From Candidatus Thorarchaeota archaeon (lineage in GTDB: Archaea; Asgardarchaeota; Thorarchaeia; Thorarchaeales; Thorarchaeaceae), in NCBI GenBank assembly GCA_050124975.1, contig JASFEF010000003.1, forward strand, positions 1-62,358: DNA of 62,358 nucleotides, read 5' to 3'. Every line of letters begins with the position of its first letter. Position 1 is the stretch's first letter. The notes beneath the pieces were generated by a model, which did not search any database, was not told the DNA's origin, and saw nothing but the letters and a program-made list of their open reading frames with translations. The translations under genes were made by a program, and so were the position numbers. This document shows, piece by piece, positions 13,356-35,968 of this stretch.

Positions 13356-14099
13356 TTGCACTTGGTTGAATTTCCAAATCTGGTTGTTGTTCTTGTGGGT
13401 CCGGAGAATCCGGGAAATGTTGGTTTTGTGACGAGAACGTTAGCAAACTTTGGAGTGCATGAACTAAGAATAGTGGGTGAAGATCATCGACAAGACCAGT
13501 TTGCAAAGATGTTCTCAGTACACGCCCATGAGATTCTGGACAATGCAGGTATCTTTGATGATTTGGGCTCTGCTCTCTCGGATGTTGATCTAGCATGGGC
13601 TGCAACTGCGAGGGCAGGCAGAAATCATAGTGTCACACGAGCCTTGGTTCCACTTGCTGAACTGCCCAATCCGAATTCGCTCGAGAGTCGGATTGCGTTG
13701 GTCTTTGGTAGAGAGAGTACGGGACTGTTCAATGAGGAGATGGAACTATGTGACTTGGCATTTACAATACCCACTTCGAAGGACTATCCAAGCCTCAACC
13801 TCAGTCACGCGGTGTCTGTAGTCCTCTATCATCTTTTCTCAAAGTATGCCCCCGAGGAGCCTCGTCAACCTTCAGAAGCACGAGCTGCAACGTATCAAGA
13901 ACGAGAGCAGGTGTACAAGTTCTTTGATGATGTTGTAGATCAACTGCGTCTAAAAGAACATAGAGTTCCGATTGCCAAACAGGTCTTCAGAAACCTTCTA
14001 GGCAGGGCATACATGACAGGCAGGGAGGTTGCTACGCTCACAGGTGTAGTACGACGAATCAGCGAACTAGTAAATGATAGCAAACAGCTCGTGGACTAG
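13356..14099 (+). CDS. SPOUT (TrmH/TrmJ-type) RNA 2'-O-methyltransferase
   Basis: VVVLVGPENPGNVGFVTRTLANFG and ALVFGRESTGL...IPT...SLNLSHAVSVVLY are class-defining SpoU/TrmJ motifs. Confidence 0.8.
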   Translation: MHLVEFPNLVVVLVGPENPGNVGFVTRTLANFGVHELRIVGEDHRQDQFAKMFSVHAHEILDNAGIFDDLGSALSDVDLAWAATARAGRNHSVTRALVPLAELPNPNSLESRIALVFGRESTGLFNEEMELCDLAFTIPTSKDYPSLNLSHAVSVVLYHLFSKYAPEEPRQPSEARAATYQEREQVYKFFDDVVDQLRLKEHRVPIAKQVFRNLLGRAYMTGREVATLTGVVRRISELVNDSKQLVD

Positions 14100-24545: not shown

Positions 24546-25286
24546 ATGAAAGAAGCCAAGAAAATCTTCAAGACTGCTCTGAATGAAGGTAGAACCTTTG
24601 TCCTAGAGCATGAAGCAAAGGACATTATGAAGGCATACGGAATCCCTATACCGTCATATGCAACTGCCAGCACTCCTGATGAGGCAGTTGAGAAGTCAGA
24701 AGCAATAGGTTTCCCGGTTGTGCTCAAGATTCTATCAAAGGATATTCTGCATAAGTCAGATGCAGGAGGAGTGAAGATCAACCTGAAAGACGAAGATGCT
24801 GTTCGAAAGGCCTTTGATGAGATTATGGAGAATGCAAAGAAGTACGGAAAGGAAAAGGGAATCGAAGTAGACTTGAGCAGAGGTGTGTTCATCTCTGACT
24901 TCGCAGACATGGGAACAGAGATTATTGTGGGAGTCACAAAGGACCCACAGTTTGGTCATGCCCTTATGGCAGGTCTCGGCGGCATCTTTGTTGAAGTTCT
25001 CAAAGATGTGTCTTTCAGATTGATTCCATTCTCAGAAGCTGATGCTAGAGAGATGCTGAGTGAACTCAAAGCCTACAAGATTCTTGAAGGTGTAAGAGGT
25101 GAAGGTCCACGTGATGTAGACGCACTGATTAAAGTCATGCTAGCAGTGTCCAAGATGATTGAAGAGAATCCTGAGATAACAGAACTCGACTGTAACCCAA
25201 CCTTTGTGTATGAGAAAGGAAAAGGCGCTATTGTTGTTGATGCAAGAATTCTGATTGATGGGCCAGACAAAACTCCTAGTCACTAA
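24546..25286 (+). CDS. ADP-forming acetyl-CoA synthetase beta subunit-like ATP-grasp protein
   Basis: LEHEAKDIMKAYGIPIP...GFPVVLKILSKDILHKSDAGGVKINL is the ACD beta / ATP-grasp_5 signature. No alpha subunit in the window. Confidence 0.85.
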   Translation: MKEAKKIFKTALNEGRTFVLEHEAKDIMKAYGIPIPSYATASTPDEAVEKSEAIGFPVVLKILSKDILHKSDAGGVKINLKDEDAVRKAFDEIMENAKKYGKEKGIEVDLSRGVFISDFADMGTEIIVGVTKDPQFGHALMAGLGGIFVEVLKDVSFRLIPFSEADAREMLSELKAYKILEGVRGEGPRDVDALIKVMLAVSKMIEENPEITELDCNPTFVYEKGKGAIVVDARILIDGPDKTPSH

Positions 25287-26472
25287 TCAGATCATGAAGA
25301 AGAATTAGACCTCTCTTGAGATCGATGTCCTCCAACGGAGCTTCTTGTGAAGTCTTCGTAGCAGTAGCCAGAAGCAGCAGGAGTGCAATCAATCGAGGAA
25401 CAAGACGGGCATACTGAAGAAGGAAGTCTTTGTTTCCAGTTGAGTCTACAACTAGACCTTCAAGACGCCTTGTCACAAGCTGAATCCTCTCCTCAGCCCC
25501 CGGACCTAGTACGAGGCCTTGAAAGAGCTCCACTGCAGCTGTTTCGTTCTGAAGGAAGTCTGATGATACACCAATTTGCTCAAACATTTGCAAAGCACTG
25601 ATGATTATGGGATCATAATGTTCCTCTTCAAGCCGGTTTATCTCTTGCCTTACCGCCTGAAGTTGACCCAGAAATCGTAATGAGTTTGTCAATATGGTTC
25701 GCGAAGCACCAGAAGTAGCTGCAGCCATTCTAGCTAGATGTTCACCATGGACCTTCTCGAGACTTGAAGCAACTGACGCGTTCAGTTTTCTATCAAATCC
25801 AGGAGAGAATCCAACACTTGCTGCTCTTGGTAGAACAGAGTGTGATCCTAACCGACGAATCATAGTAAGTGCTTTGAAATCTTCACTTGGTACATAGAAG
25901 AAGAGTATTCGAAGAATATCGTATGCTGTTTCAAAGTCGTTCTCTACTATCACATTTCGGCCTTGTCCTTTGCAGGCGAACGCGCTTAGAATGGCCCATG
26001 AGGAAGCAATAGCTTCACTGAGTTCCTTCCTTTGAGTTTCATCTGCAACCTCATGTTCTTCAAGGAATCGAATCAATTTCTCTGAGGAGCCGGAAATCCT
26101 CTGGAGTGTGTTGGGTCCGAATTGCAAATCTACAACGGACTTGATGAAACCCCTTGGTTCTCGGGATGGTGGTCTTAAGACCAGACCTGGTTCTTTTCGT
26201 GTCATTGTCCACCATTTTGAAGTCGAAGTGAAGTAGTCAAGAAGGTCTATTGCTTCAGTGACATCTGAGAGAGTTGCTACATCTCTTGTTTCAAGATATG
26301 TCACAAGCTTCGTGAAAAGTTTGAGAAAGAGTGTTAGATGATCGGAAATCCTAGACCCCAGAAACTTAGCGTCTGTAAACCGTACTGCCACTGTATTGAT
26401 TTGGTCAGATATGTTGTCCTCTAGACGTGTCCTTAGCAAACCTCTGTAGACATCAACTGGAGTCCTTGCCAA
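25276..26472 (-). CDS. Hypothetical 398-aa predominantly helical protein
   Basis: Long uninterrupted ORF with coding-like composition. No motif recognised. Confidence 0.55.
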   Translation of the reverse strand: MARTPVDVYRGLLRTRLEDNISDQINTVAVRFTDAKFLGSRISDHLTLFLKLFTKLVTYLETRDVATLSDVTEAIDLLDYFTSTSKWWTMTRKEPGLVLRPPSREPRGFIKSVVDLQFGPNTLQRISGSSEKLIRFLEEHEVADETQRKELSEAIASSWAILSAFACKGQGRNVIVENDFETAYDILRILFFYVPSEDFKALTMIRRLGSHSVLPRAASVGFSPGFDRKLNASVASSLEKVHGEHLARMAAATSGASRTILTNSLRFLGQLQAVRQEINRLEEEHYDPIIISALQMFEQIGVSSDFLQNETAAVELFQGLVLGPGAEERIQLVTRRLEGLVVDSTGNKDFLLQYARLVPRLIALLLLLATATKTSQEAPLEDIDLKRGLILLHDLISD

Positions 26473-26534
26473 AGCCCTGTAGTCTCCTGTTGTGTCAATT
26501 CACCTAAATTCGGAATATAAAAGCTGACAAGACG

Positions 26535-27311
26535 CTACTTGCCATATCTTCTAGAGCGGGCTCCATAGGAACGTAAAGCGCGCCATATGTCAATCCGTCG
26601 AACGGCAGGCCAGTAGATTTGTGCGAAGTAGAGTTCAGAATATGCAGACTGCCATAATAGAAATCCAGAGAGTCGTTCCTCACCGGATGTACGTATAATG
26701 AGGTCAGGATCAGGAATACCATTTGTGTAAAGGTGACCCTCTATGATGCCCTCGTTAATCTGTGAGGGTTCCAATTCACCAGACTCTATCTTTTCACCGA
26801 TTGCTTTCACAGCATCGACTAATTCAGCGCGACCAGAGTATCCAATAGCTACATTGAGAATATGGTCATCGTATTCCTTTGTTTCTTCTTCAGCTTCTCG
26901 GATCGCTTTCCGAACTCTCTCGGGTAGAAGGTCGACTCTTCCAATGGCCTGTATACGAACACGATGACGGTGAACATCAGGGTTTCCAACTACTTCACCA
27001 AACTTTTCCTCGGCGAGAGCCATAATCTCTTCAACTTCATCTTCGTTTCTCTCGAAGTTTTCGATGGAGAAAGCATACAATGTGCATACTTTGACATTTG
27101 CCTCCCACAGAATTCGCAGGACCTCCATCACTTTGGCTGCACCGCGGTGATGCCCAAACCATGGGACCTCAAGCCCATGTTTTCTCGCGTATCGACGGTT
27201 TCCATCTAAAATGATACCTACATGTCGTGGGGCTCTATCCTTGTCTAACTGTCTGAAAAGAAAGTATTCGTATAGTCTGTACATAGGACCGGATAGGTTC
27301 AACTCTAACAC
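26535..27311 (-). CDS. uppS: cis-Prenyltransferase (undecaprenyl diphosphate synthase family)
   Basis: HVGIILDGNRRYARKHG and the RTSGEERLSGFLLWQSAYSELYF motifs. Confidence 0.92.
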   Translation of the reverse strand: MLELNLSGPMYRLYEYFLFRQLDKDRAPRHVGIILDGNRRYARKHGLEVPWFGHHRGAAKVMEVLRILWEANVKVCTLYAFSIENFERNEDEVEEIMALAEEKFGEVVGNPDVHRHRVRIQAIGRVDLLPERVRKAIREAEEETKEYDDHILNVAIGYSGRAELVDAVKAIGEKIESGELEPSQINEGIIEGHLYTNGIPDPDLIIRTSGEERLSGFLLWQSAYSELYFAQIYWPAVRRIDIWRALRSYGARSRRYGK

Positions 27312-27375
27312 ACTCTGATTTAGTTAGAAATGGAGAATTCAGCTTAATAGAGTTGATGTTATGATTGCAGATGTA

Positions 27376-27747
27376 CTAGATCATTTTCGAAATCTTCTCT
27401 GCAGCACGTTTCATATCTAAGAATATGAGACCTAGTTTTGCGTTTGCAGTAGTGGAAACAGTCAGACACGCATTGATTCCAGCAGCAGTGACCAACAGCC
27501 AGCCATCGATTCCCTTGACATTGACTTGCTCAAGGTTCCCCTTTCCGAGCTCTATCGCTGCTCTCTCGCCAAGACTCAGCATAGCGGCAGTCATTGCGGC
27601 AACCTTTGCCTCATCTACATCAGTGGGAAGAGCTGATACGATTGGTAACCCTTCTACACTGACTATAGCGCAGGCTTCAATCTCTGGAATGCTCCCCTGC
27701 AGTTCATTCAGAACACCTTCGAGAGTATCTTCGCGGGTTTCTGCCAT
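27376..27747 (-). CDS. Roadblock/LC7 domain protein (MglB-like)
   Basis: The alpha-beta-beta-alpha-beta-beta-alpha pattern is visible in ACAIVSVEGLPIVSALP...VAAMTAAMLSLGERAAIELGKGNLEQVNVKGIDGWLLVTAAG...LGLIFLDMKRA. Its start is 13 nt after the GTPase stop, with an AGGTGAG SD. Confidence 0.85.
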   Translation of the reverse strand: MAETREDTLEGVLNELQGSIPEIEACAIVSVEGLPIVSALPTDVDEAKVAAMTAAMLSLGERAAIELGKGNLEQVNVKGIDGWLLVTAAGINACLTVSTTANAKLGLIFLDMKRAAEKISKMI

Positions 27748-27760
27748 TTGGTCTCACCTG

Positions 27761-28333
27761 TCATTTGTACATTCTTTTCAGGATGACTTCTCTTGCTATT
27801 GCTTGAAATGCCCTCTTAACTCCTACGCCCTGTACAGCAATGGTTTCATAGATGGGTACATTCCCACCTAGGCCTAGGAGATCAAGCATTTCATCTCGTG
27901 ACATCCTGTTTGGTAGGTCTCGCTTGTTAAGCATGACCACTATTGGAATCTCACGCCCAAGGGCATCACCGAGGAACAACTTCAGCTCCTCAAAGCTCTC
28001 TGTGTTCTCATCACGCTGGTCTGGTGAGGAGTCGGCAACAAAGAGAATTCCGTCGGTACCCTGTAGGACTACCTTCCTCTGATGTCTATGTCTCTTCTGT
28101 CCAGCCACAGTAAAGACGTCGAACAGAACTCTGCCGCCAGCACTCATGGGCACGTAGTCAAAAAACAGCGTACGATTGGTCTCATCCTCGATTGCAGTGA
28201 ACTCGCCTTTCTGTAGTCCTTCGACTTTTCCATAAAGCCAACGGAGAGCAGTTGTCTTACCACCCAGGGACGGGCCATAGAATACTAGTTTGAGATGAAT
28301 GCGTCCCTTGTCGTCTTTTCGAATTGTAAACAC
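27761..28333 (-). CDS. MglA-family small Ras-like GTPase
   Basis: G1 YGPSLGGKTT. Switch I NRTLFFDYVP. MglA-specific G3 FTVAGQ, with Thr in place of the canonical Asp. G4 NKRD. G5-region GVGV. Collinear with Myxococcus MglA as I recall it. Confidence 0.85.
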   Translation of the reverse strand: MFTIRKDDKGRIHLKLVFYGPSLGGKTTALRWLYGKVEGLQKGEFTAIEDETNRTLFFDYVPMSAGGRVLFDVFTVAGQKRHRHQRKVVLQGTDGILFVADSSPDQRDENTESFEELKLFLGDALGREIPIVVMLNKRDLPNRMSRDEMLDLLGLGGNVPIYETIAVQGVGVKRAFQAIAREVILKRMYK

Positions 28334-28582
28334 CTCGTCGTGTCACTGCAGAGGTCCCTGTAATGGGATGTTGATTGAAAGAAAAGTTCTGTCTAATAAA
28401 AGCCTTTGTGGCACCGAAGGGTGCTTCTGGACGGCATTGTTGCTAGATTGGACTCCTCAATTCAATACACACTGAGTAGTGGAATGCCAGACGTAGATAC
28501 AACTGTATGTGTTATGTTTGTTTTGACTCACTCAAATTGGATATTGTGGAAATTCCAAATCATTATCACCGTTCGAGAGAGG

Positions 28583-28948
28583 ATGAATGCAGAGGGAAAC
28601 CATTTGACTGAAGAACAGGAACATAAGACCTGTCCATCCTGTGGGGAGATGATGGAGGAGGGGTATCTCATTAGCAAGATGGGTGTTTACTGGGATGATC
28701 ATGTCCCAAGATTTGTCGCACCAGGCACACTCCTATCACCCAATACAACAGAGGTTTTCAAGATGCATTACGTTCACTCGTACAGGTGTCGATTCTGTAA
28801 AATCATTCAATATGGAGAACCATCTGATTTTGTGCGATTTGCATGTCCACACTGTGAGGCAAAATATGAGTATGAGATTCCAAAAGACACTGATCAGATT
28901 GTCTGTCAGAACTGCGCCAAGAAATTCTCCAGAACTAATATTCACTAA
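28583..28948 (+). CDS. Double zinc-ribbon protein
   Basis: CPSCG...CRFC followed by CPHCE...CQNC. ATG at 28583 is preceded by GAGAGAGG. The upstream part of ORF 28406-28948 looks non-coding. Confidence 0.6.
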   Translation: MNAEGNHLTEEQEHKTCPSCGEMMEEGYLISKMGVYWDDHVPRFVAPGTLLSPNTTEVFKMHYVHSYRCRFCKIIQYGEPSDFVRFACPHCEAKYEYEIPKDTDQIVCQNCAKKFSRTNIH

Positions 28949-28985
28949 CGAGTAAATCTGCTAGGTGTGATAACAACTACTAGAC

Positions 28986-29478
28986 TCAAACTCTTTCTAG
29001 TTCAGCTAGGGCTGACTTCAGGTCCTCTTCGTCAAGCTCGCTTTCCTTCGGAGATAGCGGTTCCACCGCAAGGAACTTGTCGAGCTCATCAGCCAGTTGC
29101 ACACCTTGTTTCTTCATCACAAGTCGGATCAGACCGATGTTGACCTCTGCCTCTGAAACCACACACAGTACACCTTTCCCACAGGCTGAGGCGAAGATTT
29201 TGCCCTCTGAGAACTCAGAAGTGACTATCTCAAGCTCCCCAATCTGCAGGTTCTTGCCCTGCTCCTCACTTGCACAGAAGACCGCACTGGCGATAGCTCC
29301 AATTGAGTCGACGTCTACTGGGTAGTAGGACAGCTTGGACACGTTTGCGATGGTCAATCCCGTTTTAGACGGCTTGTAGAAATTACTTGCCTTTGTCTAC
29401 GAGAATGACCTTCTTGATGCCCTTGTCCTGTCTGATAATTTCCGTGAGGATCTTATCGAAGGCTTTTGGATCACTCAT
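28986..29478 (-). pseudogene. Roadblock/LC7 gene split by a +1 frame change (or a recoded gene)
   Basis: ATG at 29478 (SD GAGGTG) encodes MSDPKAFDKILTEIIRQDKGIKKVILVDKGK, then TAA at 29383-29385. This is helix 1 and strand 1 of a Roadblock fold. The rest of the domain (IGAIASAVFCASEEQGKNLQIGELEIVTSEF...VLCVVSEAEVNIGLIRLVMKK) is in the +1 frame, open from 29396 to 28986. Confidence 0.6.
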
Positions 29479-29504
29479 TAATAGTACACCTCTATCATAA
29501 TTTC

Positions 29505-29804
29505 CTACTGAGTGTTCTTAAGGACTACTAGGATGAGTCCTTCTTTCACTTCCGGTGCGATGTTAATCTGACCTTTGGTTGTATCCAAGGTCAGGAACGA
29601 CAGCGACCCCTCTTGAAGTTCTCGCACTGCGTCTAGTGCTTTTCCCACAAGGGAGGTGATTATCGCAGCGACGTTCTCTGTAGTTTCGGGGTCTAGATCA
29701 CTACTGAGTGGTAGACCATCCATGTTGGTCACAACAATTCCTCGTACTCCTTCCTGTTCTTTTATTTTGGAAAGAATCCCTTGAAGTTTTTCTTGACTAA
29801 TCAA
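29505..29804 (-). CDS. Roadblock/LC7 domain protein
   Basis: LQGILSKIKEQEGVRGIVVTNMDGLPLSS...VAAIITSLVGKALDAVRELQEGSLSFLTLDTTKGQINIAP...LILVVL. A TTG at 29804 with GAGGAC 8 nt upstream is preferred over the Cys-rich extension to 30020. Confidence 0.75.
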   Translation of the reverse strand: MISQEKLQGILSKIKEQEGVRGIVVTNMDGLPLSSDLDPETTENVAAIITSLVGKALDAVRELQEGSLSFLTLDTTKGQINIAPEVKEGLILVVLKNTQ

Positions 29805-29929
29805 CGTACAGAGTCCTCGCTGATTCAACTGTGTCGTATCATCTACGCCGCAGTTGACTATTTTAGACTTGTGGAGATATGTTACCAGTCCACAGGCATC
29901 ATTTGCGCATTTGGAGAATATTTGGGGTT

Positions 29930-29978
29930 GTGTTACATAGAAAAAGAGGTTGGTCGTGCTCGAAAAACACGCACGACC
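29930..29978 (-). terminator. Hairpin plus T-tract downstream of the vWA gene
   Basis: A perfect 8-bp stem (29952-29959 with 29971-29978) and an 11-nt loop lie 25 nt after the stop at 30004. On the minus strand this is followed by AACCTCTTTTTCT. Confidence 0.45.
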
Positions 29979-30003
29979 GTTGAACGTAATATCAGAGCTA
30001 TAC

Positions 30004-31620
30004 TCATTCTTTGTCTTCAAAGAGCTTCTTAGAACTTCGTTTGCTCTGAGCGAGGCTTCCAGTGAAGGCTTCGTCTGCAGCTCCCGAGGGTGCTGATGCA
30101 GGAGCGGCTTCTAGCATCTCCTCTTGACGAGCAATCTCCTCTTCTTCATCGTTCAGAACATTGTCAGTCTTGTCTAACATTGCTTGAACGGCTTTGGGAG
30201 CTCCTTTCGCCTTGGTCTTCAGAGCCTTTCTGAATTTAGCTATTCGCTTTCGACCGCCCGCTCTGTCACCACGGAATGACTCTTCACCAGCCTTTTGTGT
30301 CACGAATGTGGCACCGACAGTAGGATCAAGGGTTTCCATGATCTCATCCTCCTTCTTGGAAACCTTGAGCTTGGTGGTTACAGCACGGACCCTTCGGGCA
30401 CCTTCCTCATCAGTGTAGGTCACTTGGACCTGTATGGGAACCTCAGGCTCTTTGATTTCCTTTTCAGGTTCGACCTCAAAGTAGAGCTCGTGGTCTTCGC
30501 CAACAACTCCAATCTTGCTCTCGCTAGACTTCTTCAATTGGTCCACAACAGCTCTTGAAACTCCAGATGCATCTTTGACCTTCACACCAGGTGGGGTGAT
30601 TAGACGAACCTCCACATCCCTACCAAGGAGCGATGCTCCGGCAAGTTCTGAGAGGCTTCTGTCAAGCTCGTTGGGCGTGACGTAATACATCTGACCGCCC
30701 GTGGCTTCTGGTAAGAGTCCCAAGGTCTGAAGCTCCATGCCTGCTCTGGACGCAATACCAACGACATCAACTGCTGTACCTAGTTCCATGAACATCTTTC
30801 CAAGGTCTTCATAGTACTTGCTCGCGGGAGTGACTTGGTATCCCTCAAGAGCGCCAATTCCCTCATTGGCAAGTCCGTCTGTAAGAAGAACCACTCTTCC
30901 GACATTTCGATGCTTGGCAATGACAAAGGCCATCCCTACAGCAGGTCCTAGAGCCGTGCCGCCTTGATCACGGAGTGCCTGAACATGCTTCTTCAGCCTG
31001 TCCTTGTTCTTGCCCACGCCTATCAACTTGATATTGTCAAGGAGCTTCTTCGTGGAGTTCATGATATCCTTCAAGCTTGCAAAGGATTCTCTAGGAAGCT
31101 CAACGGGATTTCCATTCTCAAGATTTCTAGCCACAACAGAACTCTCAAACTCTATCAAACCGAACATTGTGTCAGGTGCATTTGCAGCAAGACTGTCAAT
31201 AGATGTGTTTAGACTGCGTTTTACAGCAGCTAAGTTTGCTCCGGCCATTGATCCCGAAACATCAATGAGTCCTAGGAAGGACATACCGCCAACAGCAATC
31301 GCCTCTGTAGCGGTTTCTGGATCTGGGGGTGCTTCGATAACGAAATCCGTGTCGTCACCTGCTACCACAATCTCCCCCTCAATTACATTCAGAGTTCCGC
31401 AGAACGGGCATACAAAGTGCTTGCCCACCTTTGGGTCCTCTTCGATTTGGTCCACACTAAGGAGAAAGCCATTGCACTTGTGGCAGGCGATTGGCTTTCC
31501 TACAATCTTTGTTGTTTCATGCGCAAGATGACCAAATTCTACACGCAAGACATATGGAATGTCGCTCAGGACCTTCTTCGAAGCCGGAAAAGCTTCTGAG
31601 CTAGTTCTCAACATAGGCAT
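30004..31620 (-). CDS. Zinc-ribbon + von Willebrand A (MIDAS) + beta-rich domain protein with a charged disordered tail. Sec23/24-like domain order.
   Basis: Zinc ribbon CHKCN-x22-CPFCG. vWA with complete MIDAS (DVSGSM, GGTALG, LLTDGLAN). Then VDVVGIAS...LQTLGLLPEATGGQMYYV and a beta-rich segment (RDVEVRLITPPGVKVKDASG...IQVQVTYTDEEG). The last ~100 aa are K/E/A-rich. Confidence 0.85.
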   Translation of the reverse strand: MPMLRTSSEAFPASKKVLSDIPYVLRVEFGHLAHETTKIVGKPIACHKCNGFLLSVDQIEEDPKVGKHFVCPFCGTLNVIEGEIVVAGDDTDFVIEAPPDPETATEAIAVGGMSFLGLIDVSGSMAGANLAAVKRSLNTSIDSLAANAPDTMFGLIEFESSVVARNLENGNPVELPRESFASLKDIMNSTKKLLDNIKLIGVGKNKDRLKKHVQALRDQGGTALGPAVGMAFVIAKHRNVGRVVLLTDGLANEGIGALEGYQVTPASKYYEDLGKMFMELGTAVDVVGIASRAGMELQTLGLLPEATGGQMYYVTPNELDRSLSELAGASLLGRDVEVRLITPPGVKVKDASGVSRAVVDQLKKSSESKIGVVGEDHELYFEVEPEKEIKEPEVPIQVQVTYTDEEGARRVRAVTTKLKVSKKEDEIMETLDPTVGATFVTQKAGEESFRGDRAGGRKRIAKFRKALKTKAKGAPKAVQAMLDKTDNVLNDEEEEIARQEEMLEAAPASAPSGAADEAFTGSLAQSKRSSKKLFEDKE

Positions 31621-31813
31621 CTAATACTAGTCTCCAAAATTTATTGGCTGACCTTTACGTGAGCGGTTTTAAGTGAATCGACGAAGAATTGCATTCACAA
31701 AGCACAATCTTACTCCGAAAAAGAGAATAACAGACCGACGCGTAAGATATTTACACACCTATTGTCAGAACTGCGGGTAGACAATTCAGACCACAAGGGA
31801 GGAAAACTCACAG

Positions 31814-32176
31814 ATGGCTGATCAAGCAAAGATTGAACAAGTTGTACAGGAAACGATGGCTGCGAACGCAGATCTCGAAGGCATTGTCATATGTGATGCC
31901 AAAGGAAATGTAGTATTTGGGCATACTATAAGCGGGGGAACAAAGCATGCAGATGTGTCGAATCTTGCTGTGAAGATAGCAGCTAATTCTTCTCAGCTTT
32001 CGGCTGGTCTGGATAAGGGAGGTCTGAAGGAAGTCAGTATTGCATCAGACAACGGTTTCATTATAATCCTCGGCGACGTAAAACTTGTACTGGCAGGAAT
32101 CGCAGGCGAAGGCGCAAGAGAGTCATTAGGGCTTCTTAGGATGGCTCTGAGAAGAGCACTCTTGCAGATTGTTTGA
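31814..32176 (+). CDS. Roadblock/LC7 domain protein
   Basis: LEGIVICDAKGNVVFGHT...SNLAVKIAANSSQLSAGLDKGGLKEVSIASDNGFIIILGDVKLVLAGIAG...LGLLRMALRRA. Strong SD AAGGGAGGAAAA. Confidence 0.85.
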   Translation: MADQAKIEQVVQETMAANADLEGIVICDAKGNVVFGHTISGGTKHADVSNLAVKIAANSSQLSAGLDKGGLKEVSIASDNGFIIILGDVKLVLAGIAGEGARESLGLLRMALRRALLQIV

Positions 32177-32377
32177 TAGAAAGCGACCGAAAAAGTCAAC
32201 AGAGTTACACTTTTCAGCAGTTTAGAGGATGCCCTCTAAGCCTGAATACATAATCCAGATGTAGCTGGAGTAATACTAGGGTCATACCAACCGTATTTAG
32301 GACTGTGTAAAATCGGAATAACACACTTGGTCACGCCAGGGTTGTTCTGACTGTAACTTGCCGGAAGGGAACGGGAC

Positions 32378-35300
32378 TTGGTTCACATTGAGAAGCTTGT
32401 ATGCAAAGGCTTCAAATCATTCGGACGAGATTCAGTCAGTATCAAGCTCAACCAAGGATTCACCTGCATTGTTGGACCAAATGGATCCGGTAAATCCAAT
32501 GTTGTTGATGCTATTCTTTTTGTACTTGGGCAACTGAGTGCAAAAACTCTACGTGCCAATGTGTTCTCAGATTTACTTTATTCTCCACCAAAGCCCAATA
32601 TGCCTCCAAAGGCCAAGTCTGCTCATGTAGAACTCCATTTCAACAACAAAGACAGGAAGCTGCAGATTGATGCAGACAGGGTGGTGATTGAGAGGCAGTT
32701 AGATGATTCAGGAAAGTCTGTGTGTCGAATCAATGGGAAAGTTGTGACCCGTGCTGCAGTGTTGGATGTATTAGGCGCCATTGGGGTCGACCCTAATGGA
32801 TACAACCTTGTTCTTCAGGGCGAGATTGCTCAGATGGTCAAGGTTAGCCCAAGTGAGCGAAGAAAACTGATTGAGGAGATTGCAGGAATATCGGCATATG
32901 ATGAGCAGAAAGATCGTGCTCTGAAGAAACTAGCTGAGAGTGAAACTAACCTAGGAAAGGTCGACATGCAACTCCAGGAACGGCGTCGTCATCTTGAGAA
33001 ACTGGAAGAGGACATGTCGGATGCCCGTAGATATCAGAATCTCCACGAACAGATACGAAAACACAGGGTCGACATTCTCGCATGGAGTACCATCAAGGGA
33101 AGATCACGGATAGAAACGATTAACGAAACTTTGGCACAGCGCGCTGAAGAGGCAGAGAGTCTTGTCAAGGAGTTAGTAGAAGTAGAAACTGGTGTTGAAG
33201 GAACGGACACAGAGATTGAGAAGATAGACCATGATATCGATCAGATCACTGGCGGAGACTCAACCAGGGTATCAGAGCAGTATGGTATAGTATCTGCGGC
33301 TGTGACTCATGTTAAGGGAGACTTGGACAGAGCTCAGGCAGAGTTTGACAGGGCAAATGGTGAAAAAACAGCCCTAAAAGAAGAACTCGAAACTGTTCAG
33401 GATGAAATCAGTCACAATGAACAAATCTTGACTGACAAAACAAATGAACTCACTTCTCTAGAAAAGGAGATGGCGGCTACAACTGCAGAGATTATTCGAT
33501 TAGAGGAGATGTCAGAGAAAGCACAAACGGCATACTATGAAACGACACTACGCCTACAGGATTTGAACAACCAGATGAGGCACTTGGATGAGGGTGTTTC
33601 TGAAATTCGATCAACGATTAAATCTGACAACAGAGAGCTTGGACTAGCTTATGAGGAACTCAGAGATGCAACTGAGAGTCTTGAGAAGGCTGAAGCGGAG
33701 ATTTCACAGTTAAAGGAAACAATTCCTGAAAAGAAAACCGAGTTTGGAAGATCTGAAGAACTTGAAAAGACCAAGCAGGCTGAAATCGACAGTCTGACAA
33801 AACAACTCTCGACTGTGGATGCGGAAGTTGTAGAGAGTGCGAAAATAGTATCCCAGACCAGAGAAGAGCTGATTAAGGTACAAGCTCGTCAAGAAGCCTT
33901 GAAAGAAGCAGAGGATGCTTTTCTAAAACGCCGCCGTGCGATTGCCACAGTCTTAGAGCTGAGAGATGCTGGTGCTATAAGTGGAATCCACGGGACTGTA
34001 GCAGAACTGGGAACAATTGACCCAGATTATGCAGTAGCGTTAGAGATCGCTGGGGGAAATAGGCTCTCCCATATTGTAGTTGAGAATGAGCAGGTTGCGA
34101 CAGAATGTGTCAATGTCTTGAAGAGTGAGAAAGTTGGTAGGGCGTCCTTTATTCCGCTTGACAAAATCAAGACAAGTGCTCCAGGAAAACTACCCAAAGA
34201 TGATGGTGTTGTTGACTTTGCACTTAACCTTGTCAAGTTTGATCCAAAAATGCGACCAGCTTTCGAGTTTGTATTCTCAGATACAATTGTGACTGAAGAT
34301 TTCGATACTGCAAAGCGACAAGGATTCCGGGGCCAGAGAGCTGTTTCTCTTGACGGAGACCTCATAGAACGCTCCGGTCTAATGACTGGGGGTTATTTCC
34401 AGAAGACCACGGCTGGTCTATCATTGCAGGTGGAAGACACCAGTCCTGAAATTGCAGAGCGTCTTCAAGGCTTAGAACAGATACTGACCGACCTTCGCAG
34501 CAAACAAGACTCTCTTAGAAAAGAGCGGTCAGACCATGAAAAAGAGGTGCAAGGTCTCTCAAAGACAAACTATAGGCTCCGTATGGAGCTAGAGAGAATC
34601 GAAGAGCGATTCGAGGATCAAAAAACTAGGGCGGAGATTCTGCAAGAGAGAATAGACAAGGCCAATCTCACCATAAGCGAGCTCGAAACTCAGGTAAAGG
34701 AACTTCAAGAGCGGGATGAAGAGCTCACTGTTCAGCGTGAGCGGGTAAGAGCTCAACGTGATGAGGCTAACGAAATCTTGGCTACATCTGATGCAAACAA
34801 GCTCAATCAGGAAATCAAGGACCTGAAGGAAGTACAGGAACAATACAACAGACAGAGGGAAAAACTGCAGGCTGAGATAACCTCAGTGAGAGTCGCGCTT
34901 GATGAGCGACTCGGACCCAAGGCGATTGACATAGAATCCAAGATCCAGTCTCAAGATGCCATAATTCCAGGTCTTGAGGAGGAAGTGAAACGACTACAGA
35001 TGGGACTCTCAGAGAGAGAGAGCGAGTTCGACAAGCTCAAGGAAGAGAGAGAGAAAATCGATGAAGCTGTCAAGGATAAACGGGTTCGTCAACTTGAGCT
35101 GAAGGAGGATCTTCGAAACCTGAGGCTGAAACACGAGGAAATACGTGAGGCACAGACATCGAATGAAAAGGCAGTTTACCGACTCCAGACTGAACAGAAC
35201 AGACTCGAAACTGATATCGTTGCCTATGTAGCTGAACTGAACACGGTGGCAGAGGCTCAAGTGGCTCTTGAAGAGAGAGAAGAAGAACGAGAACTTACCT

Positions 35301-35968
35301 ACAAGGAACTTGAAGAACTTGAAGATAAGATCAAAGAGATTGAGAGAGAACTCGAAGCTATGGGACCTGTCAATCTGAAATCACTCACGGACTATGACAT
35401 GGAAAAAGACCGGTATGAGGAGATTGTTGACAAGAAGACTCGCCTTGAAGATGAACGGAGAGAGATTCTGGTCTTCATGGAAGAGCTTGAGGCGGAAAAG
35501 ACACAGAAGTTCCTCACGGTCTACAACGAGATTGCTGACAACTTTGCTACAGTATTTGCACAGCTATCACCAGAGGGTGAAGCTAACCTTATGCTTGAGA
35601 ACCCCGAACATCCTCTAATGGGAGGAATCACCGTCAGATCAAAACCTCGAGGAAAAGAACTCGTTACTCTTGATGCCATGAGCGGTGGAGAGAAAACCCT
35701 TACAGGGCTTGCGCTCATCTTTGCAATTCAAATGTATAGTCCTGCTAGCTTTTACATTTTTGATGAAATAGATGCAGCTCTTGACAATGTCAACGCCCAT
35801 AATGTAGCACTCCTCATTTCGGAGATGTCAAAGAATTCACAGTTTGTAGTTGTATCACTCAGGGACACCACAGTTCGAAAGGCTGATTTGCTGGTGGGAA
35901 TATCAAACCAGGATGGAATCTCTAGAATTGTTTCAGTTGATTTGGAGGAGGTTGGTGCATCAGCATGA
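32378..35968 (+). CDS. smc: Chromosome segregation protein SMC
   Basis: 1196 aa. N-terminal Walker A GPNGSGKSN, long coiled coils, a hinge (GIHGTVAELG...), and C-terminal signature LSGGEKTL with Walker B FYIFDEIDAALD. Confidence 0.95.
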   Translation: MVHIEKLVCKGFKSFGRDSVSIKLNQGFTCIVGPNGSGKSNVVDAILFVLGQLSAKTLRANVFSDLLYSPPKPNMPPKAKSAHVELHFNNKDRKLQIDADRVVIERQLDDSGKSVCRINGKVVTRAAVLDVLGAIGVDPNGYNLVLQGEIAQMVKVSPSERRKLIEEIAGISAYDEQKDRALKKLAESETNLGKVDMQLQERRRHLEKLEEDMSDARRYQNLHEQIRKHRVDILAWSTIKGRSRIETINETLAQRAEEAESLVKELVEVETGVEGTDTEIEKIDHDIDQITGGDSTRVSEQYGIVSAAVTHVKGDLDRAQAEFDRANGEKTALKEELETVQDEISHNEQILTDKTNELTSLEKEMAATTAEIIRLEEMSEKAQTAYYETTLRLQDLNNQMRHLDEGVSEIRSTIKSDNRELGLAYEELRDATESLEKAEAEISQLKETIPEKKTEFGRSEELEKTKQAEIDSLTKQLSTVDAEVVESAKIVSQTREELIKVQARQEALKEAEDAFLKRRRAIATVLELRDAGAISGIHGTVAELGTIDPDYAVALEIAGGNRLSHIVVENEQVATECVNVLKSEKVGRASFIPLDKIKTSAPGKLPKDDGVVDFALNLVKFDPKMRPAFEFVFSDTIVTEDFDTAKRQGFRGQRAVSLDGDLIERSGLMTGGYFQKTTAGLSLQVEDTSPEIAERLQGLEQILTDLRSKQDSLRKERSDHEKEVQGLSKTNYRLRMELERIEERFEDQKTRAEILQERIDKANLTISELETQVKELQERDEELTVQRERVRAQRDEANEILATSDANKLNQEIKDLKEVQEQYNRQREKLQAEITSVRVALDERLGPKAIDIESKIQSQDAIIPGLEEEVKRLQMGLSERESEFDKLKEEREKIDEAVKDKRVRQLELKEDLRNLRLKHEEIREAQTSNEKAVYRLQTEQNRLETDIVAYVAELNTVAEAQVALEEREEERELTYKELEELEDKIKEIERELEAMGPVNLKSLTDYDMEKDRYEEIVDKKTRLEDERREILVFMEELEAEKTQKFLTVYNEIADNFATVFAQLSPEGEANLMLENPEHPLMGGITVRSKPRGKELVTLDAMSGGEKTLTGLALIFAIQMYSPASFYIFDEIDAALDNVNAHNVALLISEMSKNSQFVVVSLRDTTVRKADLLVGISNQDGISRIVSVDLEEVGASA

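Follow-up and report, generated by a model that had tools for sequence, protein, structure and literature searches.

A conserved MglA-Roadblock gene module of Asgard archaea with a Sec23/24-like neighbour and a putative mRNA intron in Thorarchaeia

Introduction

Do genes that stand side by side in an archaeal genome also work together? This question is raised by a dense gene cluster on contig JASFEF010000003.1 of a Candidatus Thorarchaeota archaeon (assembly GCA_050124975.1), of which a stretch of 62,358 nucleotides was analyzed (hereafter the window). Between positions 27376 and 32176, the window encodes an MglA-type small GTPase, several Roadblock/LC7 proteins, a zinc-ribbon protein and a 538-aa Sec23/24-like protein, named Sec23L in the following. 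An initial annotation, made from the sequence, had considered all of these as components of one multi-subunit, GTPase-regulated assembly module. An ORF listing of 24-36 kb confirmed all seven open reading frames (ORFs) of the cluster at or near the positions first assigned to them. The Roadblock genes are referred to as RA, RB, RC and RD; a profile built from all four families found exactly these four in the whole 62-kb window, and the "five" paralogs originally counted were thus a miscount.

Comparison with other genomes leads us to a narrower answer. With a probability of roughly two in three, the cluster represents, in its Thorarchaeial version, a five-gene module found across Asgard archaea and composed of MglA and four Roadblock genes, whereas Sec23L, the zinc-ribbon gene and a putative intron in RB are later additions of particular lineages.

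Results and Discussion

A five-gene module shared by Asgard lineages

Six contigs with MglA orthologues from Asgard lineages other than Thorarchaeia (loci L085-L090) were compared with the window. In the gene orders below, numbers give protein lengths in amino acids and a slash marks the divergent intergenic region. Freyarchaeota (L085) reveal the order SMC <- Robl117 / Robl105 -> Robl154 -> MglA -> Robl121, with a cis-prenyltransferase (UPPS-type) gene nearby, and Baldrarchaeia (L088) the order Robl130 / Robl94 -> Robl155 -> MglA -> Robl135 -> UPPS. Two further lineages (L089, L090) follow the Baldrarchaeia-like pattern, the RA-like gene of L090 being placed on the opposite strand. The locus of Jordarchaeales (L086) reads Robl100 -> Robl155 -> MglA -> Robl123, and that of Heimdallarchaeota (L087) is partial (Robl164 -> MglA ... 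Robl134). Best-hit comparison established one-to-one, position-matched orthology for the four Roadblocks and MglA, with identities of 55-69% for RB, 49-68% for RA, 59-65% for MglA, 36-51% for RC and 26-33% for RD. RA orthologues stand beside MglA in all six lineages, and RD orthologues occupy the same divergent position in Freyarchaeota, Baldrarchaeia, L089 and L090. Thus, the conserved entity consists of MglA and four Roadblock orthogroups in the order RD / RC-RB-MglA-RA. The gap between RB and MglA measures 15-85 nt in four of the five non-Thorarchaeial loci with RC-RB-MglA-RA and 436 nt in Jordarchaeales. Sec23L is present in none of the six module loci.

Within Thorarchaeia, the arrangement is strictly kept. 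A scan of GTDB species genomes for Sec23L yielded 50 Asgard loci, among them 25 Thorarchaeial loci with enough flanking sequence to judge, whose Sec23L identities range from 56 to 94%. All 25 show the order SMC <- RD / Sec23L -> RC -> RB -> MglA -> RA -> UPPS -> 398-aa protein. Median gaps amount to 19 nt for RC-RB (range -4 to 26 nt), 16 nt for MglA-RA (9-20 nt, plus two loci with ~790 nt), 65 nt for RA-UPPS (55-74 nt), 195 nt for Sec23L-RC (151-506 nt) and 233 nt for RB-MglA (135-3916 nt). Mean identity to the window is 97% for MglA, 94% for RB, 89% for RA and 84% for RC, compared with 82% for UPPS, 78% for Sec23L, 75% for RD and 74% for SMC. MglA and the four Roadblocks are under very strong constraint and are more conserved than SMC within Thorarchaeia.

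The flanking genes are housekeeping genes and extend the synteny. A UPPS-type gene (26535-27311, minus strand, in the window) follows RA in Thorarchaeia, Baldrarchaeia, L089 and L090 and lies nearby in Freyarchaeota, while an SMC-ScpA-ScpB block (32378-35968, plus strand) flanks RD in Thorarchaeia, Freyarchaeota and L089. The 398-aa protein downstream of UPPS (25276-26472, minus strand) has no Pfam or NCBIfam match; it is kept in the Thorarchaeial loci and evolves fast (42-86% identity among them).

Since such flanks are likewise syntenic in Thorarchaeia, Freyarchaeota, Baldrarchaeia and L089, the cluster might be inherited synteny only, with functionally unrelated Roadblocks and MglA that merely happen to lie between SMC and UPPS. 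The lack of a common promoter motif in the upstream regions would fit such a view. The tight gaps (9-26 nt in Thorarchaeia, and the RB-MglA distances in the other lineages given above) do not, and neither does the recurrence of four Roadblock orthogroups in the same order across classes in which MglA is ~60% identical. In bacteria, in addition, MglA and a Roadblock are established as a functional pair (PDB 3t1q, 6h5b). We therefore regard mere synteny as highly improbable.

The proposal of an uncharacterised multi-subunit GTPase module with distinct Roadblocks is thus borne out by a gene order that at least six further Asgard lineages share (partial in Heimdallarchaeota), and neither the five-gene module nor its linkage to Sec23L turned up in our literature search. 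Asgard genomes are rich in small GTPases as well as in Roadblock and longin proteins. Pairing GTPases with their regulators from genome layout has been called hard, and in MK-D1 small-GTPase genes generally lie outside operons with Roadblock genes (PMC10933270). MglA and its four Roadblocks constitute a clear exception to this difficulty, and offer five defined proteins that can be reconstituted together and set against MglB/MglC and Ragulator.

The MglA GTPase

By its sequence, the 190-aa GTPase (27761-28333, minus strand) is a true MglA, as initially annotated. Its best solved relatives are the MglA proteins of Myxococcus xanthus and Thermus thermophilus (E=3e-38, 134 bits), and the next branch of the Ras superfamily, Arf, follows at E=6.5e-12. 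Pfam matches are to the Arf and Ras models, Pfam having no MglA model. The protein carries both the P-loop GPSLGGKT and the guanine-specificity motif NKRD. Its FTVAGQ aligns with YTVPGQ of MglA, with Thr in place of the canonical Asp (TxxGQ), and its switch I, ETNRTLFFD, aligns with ETDRTLFFD of MglA, the intrinsic arginine included. Identity to the window is 91-99.5% over 23 Thorarchaeial loci, and orthologues at 56-67% identity occur in many other Asgard classes. A second MglA-like paralogue family exists in Thorarchaeota; its members are 268-300 aa long, carry an extension and are 50-54% identical to the MglA described here.

A Thorarchaeial MglA-MglB pair has previously been mentioned in the literature (PMC13408092, PMC10933270). 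For this pair, AlphaFold 3 predicts an MglB-like dimer bound to its GTPase, with no binding of the C-terminal helix predicted (PMC13408092).

The four Roadblock proteins

RA (123 aa; 27376-27747, minus strand), directly downstream of MglA, matches Pfam Robl_LC7 (PF03259; cut-off 23 bits) with 60.4 bits (E=1.4e-16). A profile of RA orthologues finds, among solved structures, the prokaryotic Roadblocks 7f8m (1e-31) and CvnB5 (8e-17) with strong scores and M. xanthus MglB at 1.5e-7. The translational coupling of MglA and RA suggested initially is plausible, given a 13-nt spacer with a GGTGA ribosome-binding-like site, but the two genes do not overlap.

RB (28986-29478, minus strand) encodes 154 aa after excision of a 28-nt element described below, and belongs to the long, MglB/LAMTOR2-3-like type. 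Its truncated form (28986-29357, minus strand) reaches 22.8 bits with Robl_LC7 and the repaired protein 37.9 bits, along with 31.6 bits, above cut-off, for the Pfam LAMTOR3 model (MAPKK1_Int). In the PDB, RB matches M. xanthus MglB (1.8e-6), Thermus MglB (0.002) and LAMTOR2 (0.002). Only RB aligns with positions 17-154 of the 161 positions of the NCBIfam MglB model, at a score far below its cut-off. It possesses a conserved acidic C-terminal helix and is placed upstream of MglA, as is mglB in mglBA. Identity to the window is 89-100% over 24 Thorarchaeial loci. While RA, the Roadblock first taken for the MglB counterpart, does match MglB, RB appears from its sequence to be at least as MglB-like.

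RC (99 aa; 29505-29804, minus strand), located 26 nt upstream of RB in the window, is a short Roadblock of the dynein-LC7/LAMTOR5-like "RBLC7" type, with Pfam matches to Robl_LC7 (7e-16, 58.1 bits) and LAMTOR5 (5.5e-7, 30 bits) and PDB matches to the Odin RBLC7 protein 7f8f (2e-25) and human DYNLRB1 (~4e-13). Its homologues among the matches listed are Thorarchaeial orthologues of at least 80% identity. A longer, 171-aa form of RC with an N-terminal extension overlapping Sec23L was considered and rejected, as stop codons close the extension in L009, L012, L014 and L016.

RD (120 aa; 31814-32176, plus strand) is transcribed divergently and is the fastest-evolving of the four Roadblocks. A profile of 16 RD orthologues reaches E=5e-10 against the solved Roadblock 9jq8 and E=0.002 against dynein roadblock, and its positional orthologues in Freyarchaeota and Baldrarchaeia carry PF03259 matches. 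Among the single sequences, RA, RC and the repaired RB lie above the Robl_LC7 cut-off, as the initial annotation would have it, whereas RD (17.9 bits) stays below, as does the zinc finger of Sec23L with the zf-Sec23_Sec24 model (17 bits, cut-off 25 bits).

Sec23L and its place in the cluster

Sec23L (538 aa; 30004-31620, minus strand) had been described as a protein with zinc finger and vWA domain that resembles Sec23/24, and this description holds. Two Pfam domains exceed their cut-offs, Sec23_trunk with 41.7 bits (against 27) and Sec23_BS with 36.3 bits (against 33.5). The protein is built from a beta-barrel, a CxxC..CxxC zinc finger, a vWA trunk, a beta-sandwich and a C-terminal region predicted to be helical. 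Its AlphaFold2 (AF2) model reaches a predicted local distance difference test score (pLDDT) of 88.4 and a predicted template modelling (TM) score of 0.89, with residues 424-535 helical. The top 46 Foldseek matches of this model are all Sec23 or Sec24 chains (best E=5e-30, TM 0.72; query-normalised TM 0.61-0.75), and the Sulfolobus ArnAB complex follows next (PDB 8s05, E=1e-14). Pfam Sec23_helical has no match in Sec23L at E<=0.1. Nor is there a Pfam match for a gelsolin domain, the protein ending at residue 538 after the helical region. Because this domain is missing, Sec23L is considered Sec23/24-like and not a full member of Sec23 or Sec24; it is the known gelsolin-less Sec23/24-like protein of Thorarchaeota. 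Asgard Sec23-like proteins, Thorarchaeial homologues included, have already been described as having all Sec23 domains except gelsolin (PMC11914678, a study that contains no neighbourhood analysis).

Between the two eukaryotic proteins, the family profile of Sec23L favors Sec24 (1.7e-23, over a stretch that begins with the zinc finger and runs into the helical region, up to profile position 469) over Sec23 (1e-7), and the zinc-finger cysteines align with those of Sec24. C46, C49, C71 and C74 of the finger are invariant in 26 diverse family members, and so is a full adhesion site of the metal-ion-dependent type (MIDAS; DxSxS..T..D) formed by D120, S122, S124, T222 and D248. The nearest relatives are all Thorarchaeota, the SMTZ1-45 orthologue being annotated as "SEC24 family transport protein". 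An exhaustive search groups the family into 46 clusters below 1e-30, the strongest matches having ~500-560 aa and the weaker ones including proteins of ~700-950 aa. The C-terminus of the family (30004-30100, minus strand) shows a conserved basic tail after a low-complexity stretch, in which Ser comes after an almost invariant Arg and many members then have ...LF.

Sec23L lies inside the module only in Thorarchaeia, in all 25 informative loci. Its other loci reveal a different picture: no Roadblock or MglA gene occurs within 8 kb of Sec23L in any of 24 loci outside the main Thorarchaeial clade, which comprise a divergent metagenome-assembled genome (MAG) labelled Thorarchaeota (L027) and 23 non-Thorarchaeial loci (Hermod-, Jord-, Frey-, Odin- and Lokiarchaeal, including L. 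ossiferum). On the Freyarchaeota chromosome CP147778.1, ~850 kb separate the module (1.96 Mb) from Sec23L (2.82 Mb), and Hermod-type loci have metabolic neighbours. Most parsimoniously, Sec23L entered the divergent intergenic region between RD and RC in the Thorarchaeial ancestor. The neighbourhood expected from the initial annotation is therefore found in part: MglA and the Roadblocks co-occur across Asgard classes, but Sec23L joins them in Thorarchaeia only.

In L027 (8001-9602; isolate A361), a Sec23L of 46% identity stands without MglA or Roadblock neighbours; this locus represents either a deep Thorarchaeial lineage or a Sec23L paralogue. In another Asgard lineage, at L043 (5927-9650; similarly at L039, L044, L047 and L051), Sec23L comes after genes for a CAAX protease of the Rce1-like type, for a GTPase of the Ras family (Pfam Ras 2.8e-44) and for a peroxiredoxin, and L043 and L047 have a second Ras-family GTPase ~4 kb downstream. 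A CAAX-type protease beside a Ras-like GTPase is a curious combination. As a general link between GTPases and Sec23L, these Ras-family genes were dismissed as not significant, given the GTPase density of Asgard genomes and the housekeeping synteny there.

Putative transcription signals also set Sec23L apart. In the Sec23L-RC spacer (29805-30003, minus strand), the Sec23L stop codon is followed by a GC-rich hairpin (~29952-29978) and a T-run (~29938-29947). Folding of 27 loci showed the hairpin to recur in most Thorarchaeial loci, with lineage-specific stem sequences. Upstream of RC-RB, the TATA-like TCTAAAATAG at 29858-29867 is conserved in Thorarchaeia, and so is AATGCGCAAA. Thus, RC-RB appear to have a promoter of their own and Sec23L looks like a separate unit. 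The ~100 nt upstream of RC (29805-29925, minus strand) are unusually conserved across Thorarchaeia altogether, with the AATGCGCAAA motif and a TATA-like AAGTCTAAAATAG. Rfam has no family on this stretch; over 26500-32500 at E<=1 it returned two sub-threshold C/D-box matches, which were dismissed. A scan for sigma-70 promoters and intrinsic terminators found no more sites than in shuffled sequence; the hairpin behind Sec23L escaped it because its loop exceeds 8 nt.

These findings bear on the reading in which MglA, the Roadblocks, the zinc-ribbon protein and Sec23L make up one COPII-like, GTPase-regulated coat or assembly module, with MglA-GTP recruiting Sec23L as Sar1 recruits Sec23/24. The Sec23/24 fold is well supported by AF2 and Foldseek, yet Sec23L offers neither a gelsolin domain nor an arginine-finger donor, and its sequence resembles Sec24 more than Sec23, the subunit that binds Sar1. 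No gene for Sar1, Sec13/31 or a paralogous partner stands near Sec23L. Its place between RD and RC is invariable in Thorarchaeia, where no insertion between Sec23L, RC and RB was ever seen; however, six other Asgard lineages possess the MglA-Roadblock module without it, the 24 outside loci have no Roadblock or MglA gene within 8 kb of it, the Freyarchaeota chromosome shows it far from the module, and even in Thorarchaeia a terminator-like hairpin and the promoter-like element of RC-RB intervene. The zinc-ribbon gene occurs in few lineages, and the locus tolerates insertion of unrelated genes (see below). A Ras-family GTPase is encoded 0.7-1.3 kb upstream of Sec23L at L039, L043, L044, L047 and L051, but small GTPases account for ~2% of Asgard genes (PMC10307638), so that chance adjacency is not rare. 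Finally, in co-immunoprecipitation three Asgard Sec23-like proteins bound an Asgard Arf weakly and independently of its nucleotide state (PMC11914678); this Arf did not behave as their partner, which leaves room for another GTPase. On balance, we consider one COPII-like module unlikely. The link between Sec23L and the GTPase is one of adjacency, and as Sec23L is a Thorarchaeial neighbour, this adjacency is not readable as an ancestral COPII-like unit. Counting Sec23L among the module components, as was done initially, finds no support in any non-Thorarchaeial lineage examined, and the terminator-like and promoter-like elements speak against it in Thorarchaeia.

A putative bulge-helix-bulge intron in RB

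The RB gene had been annotated as split, and the split is genuine: compared to intact orthologues, RB carries a 28-nt insertion (29367-29394) that shifts the frame and leads to a stop after 31 codons. The minimum free energy and centroid folds of the surrounding 86 nt (29340-29425, minus strand) agree in a textbook hBHBh' motif, a bulge-helix-bulge (BHB) structure with flanking helices as defined in PMC7714728, which spans 29352-29410. Its outer helix pairs GGUCAUUCUCGU with ACGGGAUUGACC over 12 positions with one mismatch. In its center, a 4-bp helix (AGAC/GUCU) is flanked on either side by AAA bulges on opposite strands, and an inner helix GGC/GCC follows. At -25.1 kcal/mol (z=-4.4), none of 200 shuffled sequences folds as stably. 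Cutting each bulge behind its second nucleotide takes out precisely 28 nt and restores the frame; the intron would be 29365-29392, exon 1 29393-29478 and exon 2 28986-29364 (minus strand). The spliced junction would read GACAA/AACGG, i.e., ...GUAGACAA/AACGGGAUU..., and the excision restores VDKTGLTIANV as in intact orthologues, giving a 154-aa product 100% identical to an orthologue.

The same insert was recovered from a separate Logan assembly. In JGI metagenomes, an exact scan for GGCAAGTAATTTCTACAAGCC, the core of the intron, returned nothing, while a degenerate exon-gap-exon scan found the element in a different species (L084, 13835-13906), a diverged Thorarchaeial lineage with 82% identity in Sec23L and 75% in SMC. 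The fold of its positions 13822-13907 shows the same hBHBh' (-29 kcal/mol, z=-6.2). Between the window and L084, the 59-nt motif differs at 3 positions, compared to 99 differences in the other 435 nt of RB. All 3 changes lie in the intron and keep or create pairs (GC to GU; AA/AA to two U-A), and the exonic helix arms are free of differences, for which we estimate a chance of ~3e-4 at the gene-wide per-base rate. Closer relatives (91-96% identity in Sec23L) lack the element, and its distribution is therefore patchy, like that of the crenarchaeal cbf5 introns (PMC2738675).

Could RB be a recently inactivated pseudogene, its insert being a frameshift mutation or an assembly error? The raw frame is indeed broken, close relatives do without the insert, the exact metagenome scan came back empty, and splicing is so far predicted from sequence. 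A lesion would hardly be expected, however, to fall exactly within a canonical hBHBh' motif whose bulge excision repairs the frame, in a gene that ranks among the top two of the cluster in conservation, and with a repaired product identical to an orthologue. Recovery of the insert in a separate assembly and in another species, and the concentration of changes outside the motif, likewise contradict it. We consider a pseudogene improbable, and infer splicing: judged by its sequence and fold, the most likely identity of the 28-nt element is that of a spliced mini-intron. The tRNA-splicing endonuclease presumably cuts it out, and RB is thus probably functional. BHB substrates are very rare among mRNAs, only one or two being cited for the archaeal splicing endonuclease (PMC7714728), and we found no BHB intron in a protein-coding gene of an Asgard archaeon in the literature. 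If splicing is confirmed, RB provides a rare case of a protein-coding BHB intron.

The zinc-ribbon gene and other insertions

The zinc-ribbon protein (121 aa; 28583-28948, plus strand), annotated initially with two zinc ribbons, has a Pfam match to DUF6487 (34.5 bits) and a C-terminal zinc ribbon. Its proposed role as a module component found no support: the gene occurs in 3 of 27 Thorarchaeial lineages (the window, L002 and L005) and is missing from SMTZ1-45 and from a relative with 96% identity in Sec23L. It is lineage-variable and lies outside the conserved module, in an insertion hot spot.

This hot spot is the spacer between RB and MglA (28334-28985), which takes up lineage-specific inserts of 0.15-3.9 kb. 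In L003, L006, L012, L015, L020, L023 and L026 it carries inserts unrelated to each other, such as genes for a 397-aa unknown protein, for a TetR regulator together with a methyltransferase, for a ClC-like channel and for a protein of the beta-helix type, as well as an ORF resembling arrestin; in L026, the opposite strand bears a small GTPase gene in fragments. Between MglA and RA, L016 (11567-12046) and L020 (13587-14060) encode another zinc-ribbon protein, of ~158 aa and with a hydrophobic segment at its C-terminus; these are the only cases in which the MglA-RA pair is separated.

Weighing the module and its proposed function

Several points weigh against an Asgard-wide module with later additions. 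The module is embedded in an old syntenic block (SMC-ScpAB and UPPS), so that gene order alone overstates functional linkage. Among the upstream regions of RD, Sec23L, RC, MglA, UPPS and SMC, no shared conserved 8-mers were found in 21-26 Thorarchaeial loci. The RB-MglA spacer, at 135-3916 nt, is widened in Thorarchaeia and accepts unrelated genes, which makes RC-RB and MglA-RA separate transcription units there. As far as sequence goes, RA and RB match MglB about equally, and neither the pairing of the Roadblocks nor the identity of the GTPase-activating protein (GAP) is decidable from it. Lastly, that Sec23L is kept inside the module in all sampled Thorarchaeial species fits a real recruitment, and our downgrading of Sec23L may be too strong.

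With these points considered, we still favor the five-gene module as the conserved unit. From the bacterial and eukaryotic relatives, we infer contacts between its proteins, GAP or guanine nucleotide exchange factor (GEF) roles of the Roadblocks and a cellular function as follows. Dimers of Roadblock proteins would serve as MglA-binding platforms and control whether the GTPase is loaded with GTP or GDP. The MglB-type GTPase-activating dimer would be made up of RB and/or RA; an RB/RA heterodimer or stacked dimers are both sensible hypotheses. The short RC, like the divergent RD, would act as an adaptor or stacking subunit, comparable to MglC in Myxococcus and LAMTOR4/5 in Ragulator.

A bolder reading would take MglA and the four Roadblocks as a pre-eukaryotic, Ragulator-like platform common to Asgard archaea, to which Thorarchaeia recruited Sec23L as a nucleotide-dependent effector and in which splicing of the mRNA intron by the tRNA endonuclease gates the expression of RB, as the key Roadblock, in some lineages. 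We give it little credence as a whole. One part of it suggests a line of work nevertheless: with an Asgard Arf having failed to behave as the partner (PMC11914678), MglA and the Roadblocks are nominated as candidate partners of Sec23L. If Sec23L were an effector of MglA, it would represent a primitive GTPase-controlled membrane adaptor, and MglA, not Arf, would have been the original partner of the Sec23/24 lineage.

Comparison with known systems

A close parallel to the five-gene module, taken without its later additions, is given by the bacterial MglA-MglB polarity switch of M. xanthus and T. thermophilus, with which it shares the hallmark residues of MglA and the Roadblock genes directly beside the GTPase gene. 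RB lies upstream of MglA, as in bacterial mglBA, and aligns over nearly full-length MglB including the C-terminal helix, in a match far below cut-off. More than one Roadblock paralogue per GTPase is also known from the bacterial system with MglB, MglC and the co-GAP RomY (PMC9481161). In contrast, the Thorarchaeial module has four Roadblock orthogroups instead of MglB and MglC, one of them short and dynein-LC7/LAMTOR5-like, and it is found in an archaeal host, with neither RomR/RomX nor a motility context in the window.

Ragulator-Rag, with LAMTOR2/3 and LAMTOR4/5, likewise brings together a GTPase and Roadblock paralogues, some long and some short. RB matches LAMTOR3 (31.6 bits) and, in the PDB, LAMTOR2, and RC matches LAMTOR5 (30 bits), all at the level of the domain family only. 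The Thorarchaeial GTPase, however, is a single-domain MglA, in contrast to a Rag, which carries a Roadblock domain at its C-terminus, and no LAMTOR1-like anchor was seen. Streptomyces conservons (CvnA-D) encode an MglA-like GTPase, a Roadblock protein and accessory subunits in an operon, and the RA profile matches CvnB5 (8e-17). They differ by having one Roadblock along with histidine-kinase-like and DUF742 proteins, neither of which is present at the Thorarchaeial module.

The putative RB intron resembles the mRNA introns of crenarchaeal cbf5 (PMC2738675, PMC7714728) as a short insert in a coding gene with a canonical 3-4-3 BHB and a patchy distribution among close relatives. It differs in having only 28 nt, in a new host gene (Roadblock) and a new lineage (Asgard/Thorarchaeia), and in that its splicing is predicted.

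For Sec23L, Sulfolobus ArnA-ArnB (PDB 8s05; PMC12852372), described as an archaeal counterpart of the Sec23/24 core, offers an archaeal protein that has vWA, beta-sandwich and helical parts along with a MIDAS and works together with a zinc finger. There, the zinc finger resides on a separate FHA protein and phosphorylation controls the pair in archaellum regulation, whereas that of Sec23L is fused, as in Sec23/24. COPII Sec23/Sec24 share with Sec23L the arrangement of zinc finger, vWA trunk, beta-sandwich and, as predicted, helical region. Sec23L is ~200-400 residues shorter, its MIDAS is complete (DxSxS..T..D) and, lacking the gelsolin domain, it also lacks the Sar1 GAP arginine of Sec23. Among the Asgard Sec23-like proteins (PMC11914678), Sec23L is a member with the same domain set, without gelsolin, and the protein itself is no different; what our study adds is its genomic context, the conserved MIDAS and the preference of its profile for Sec24 over Sec23.

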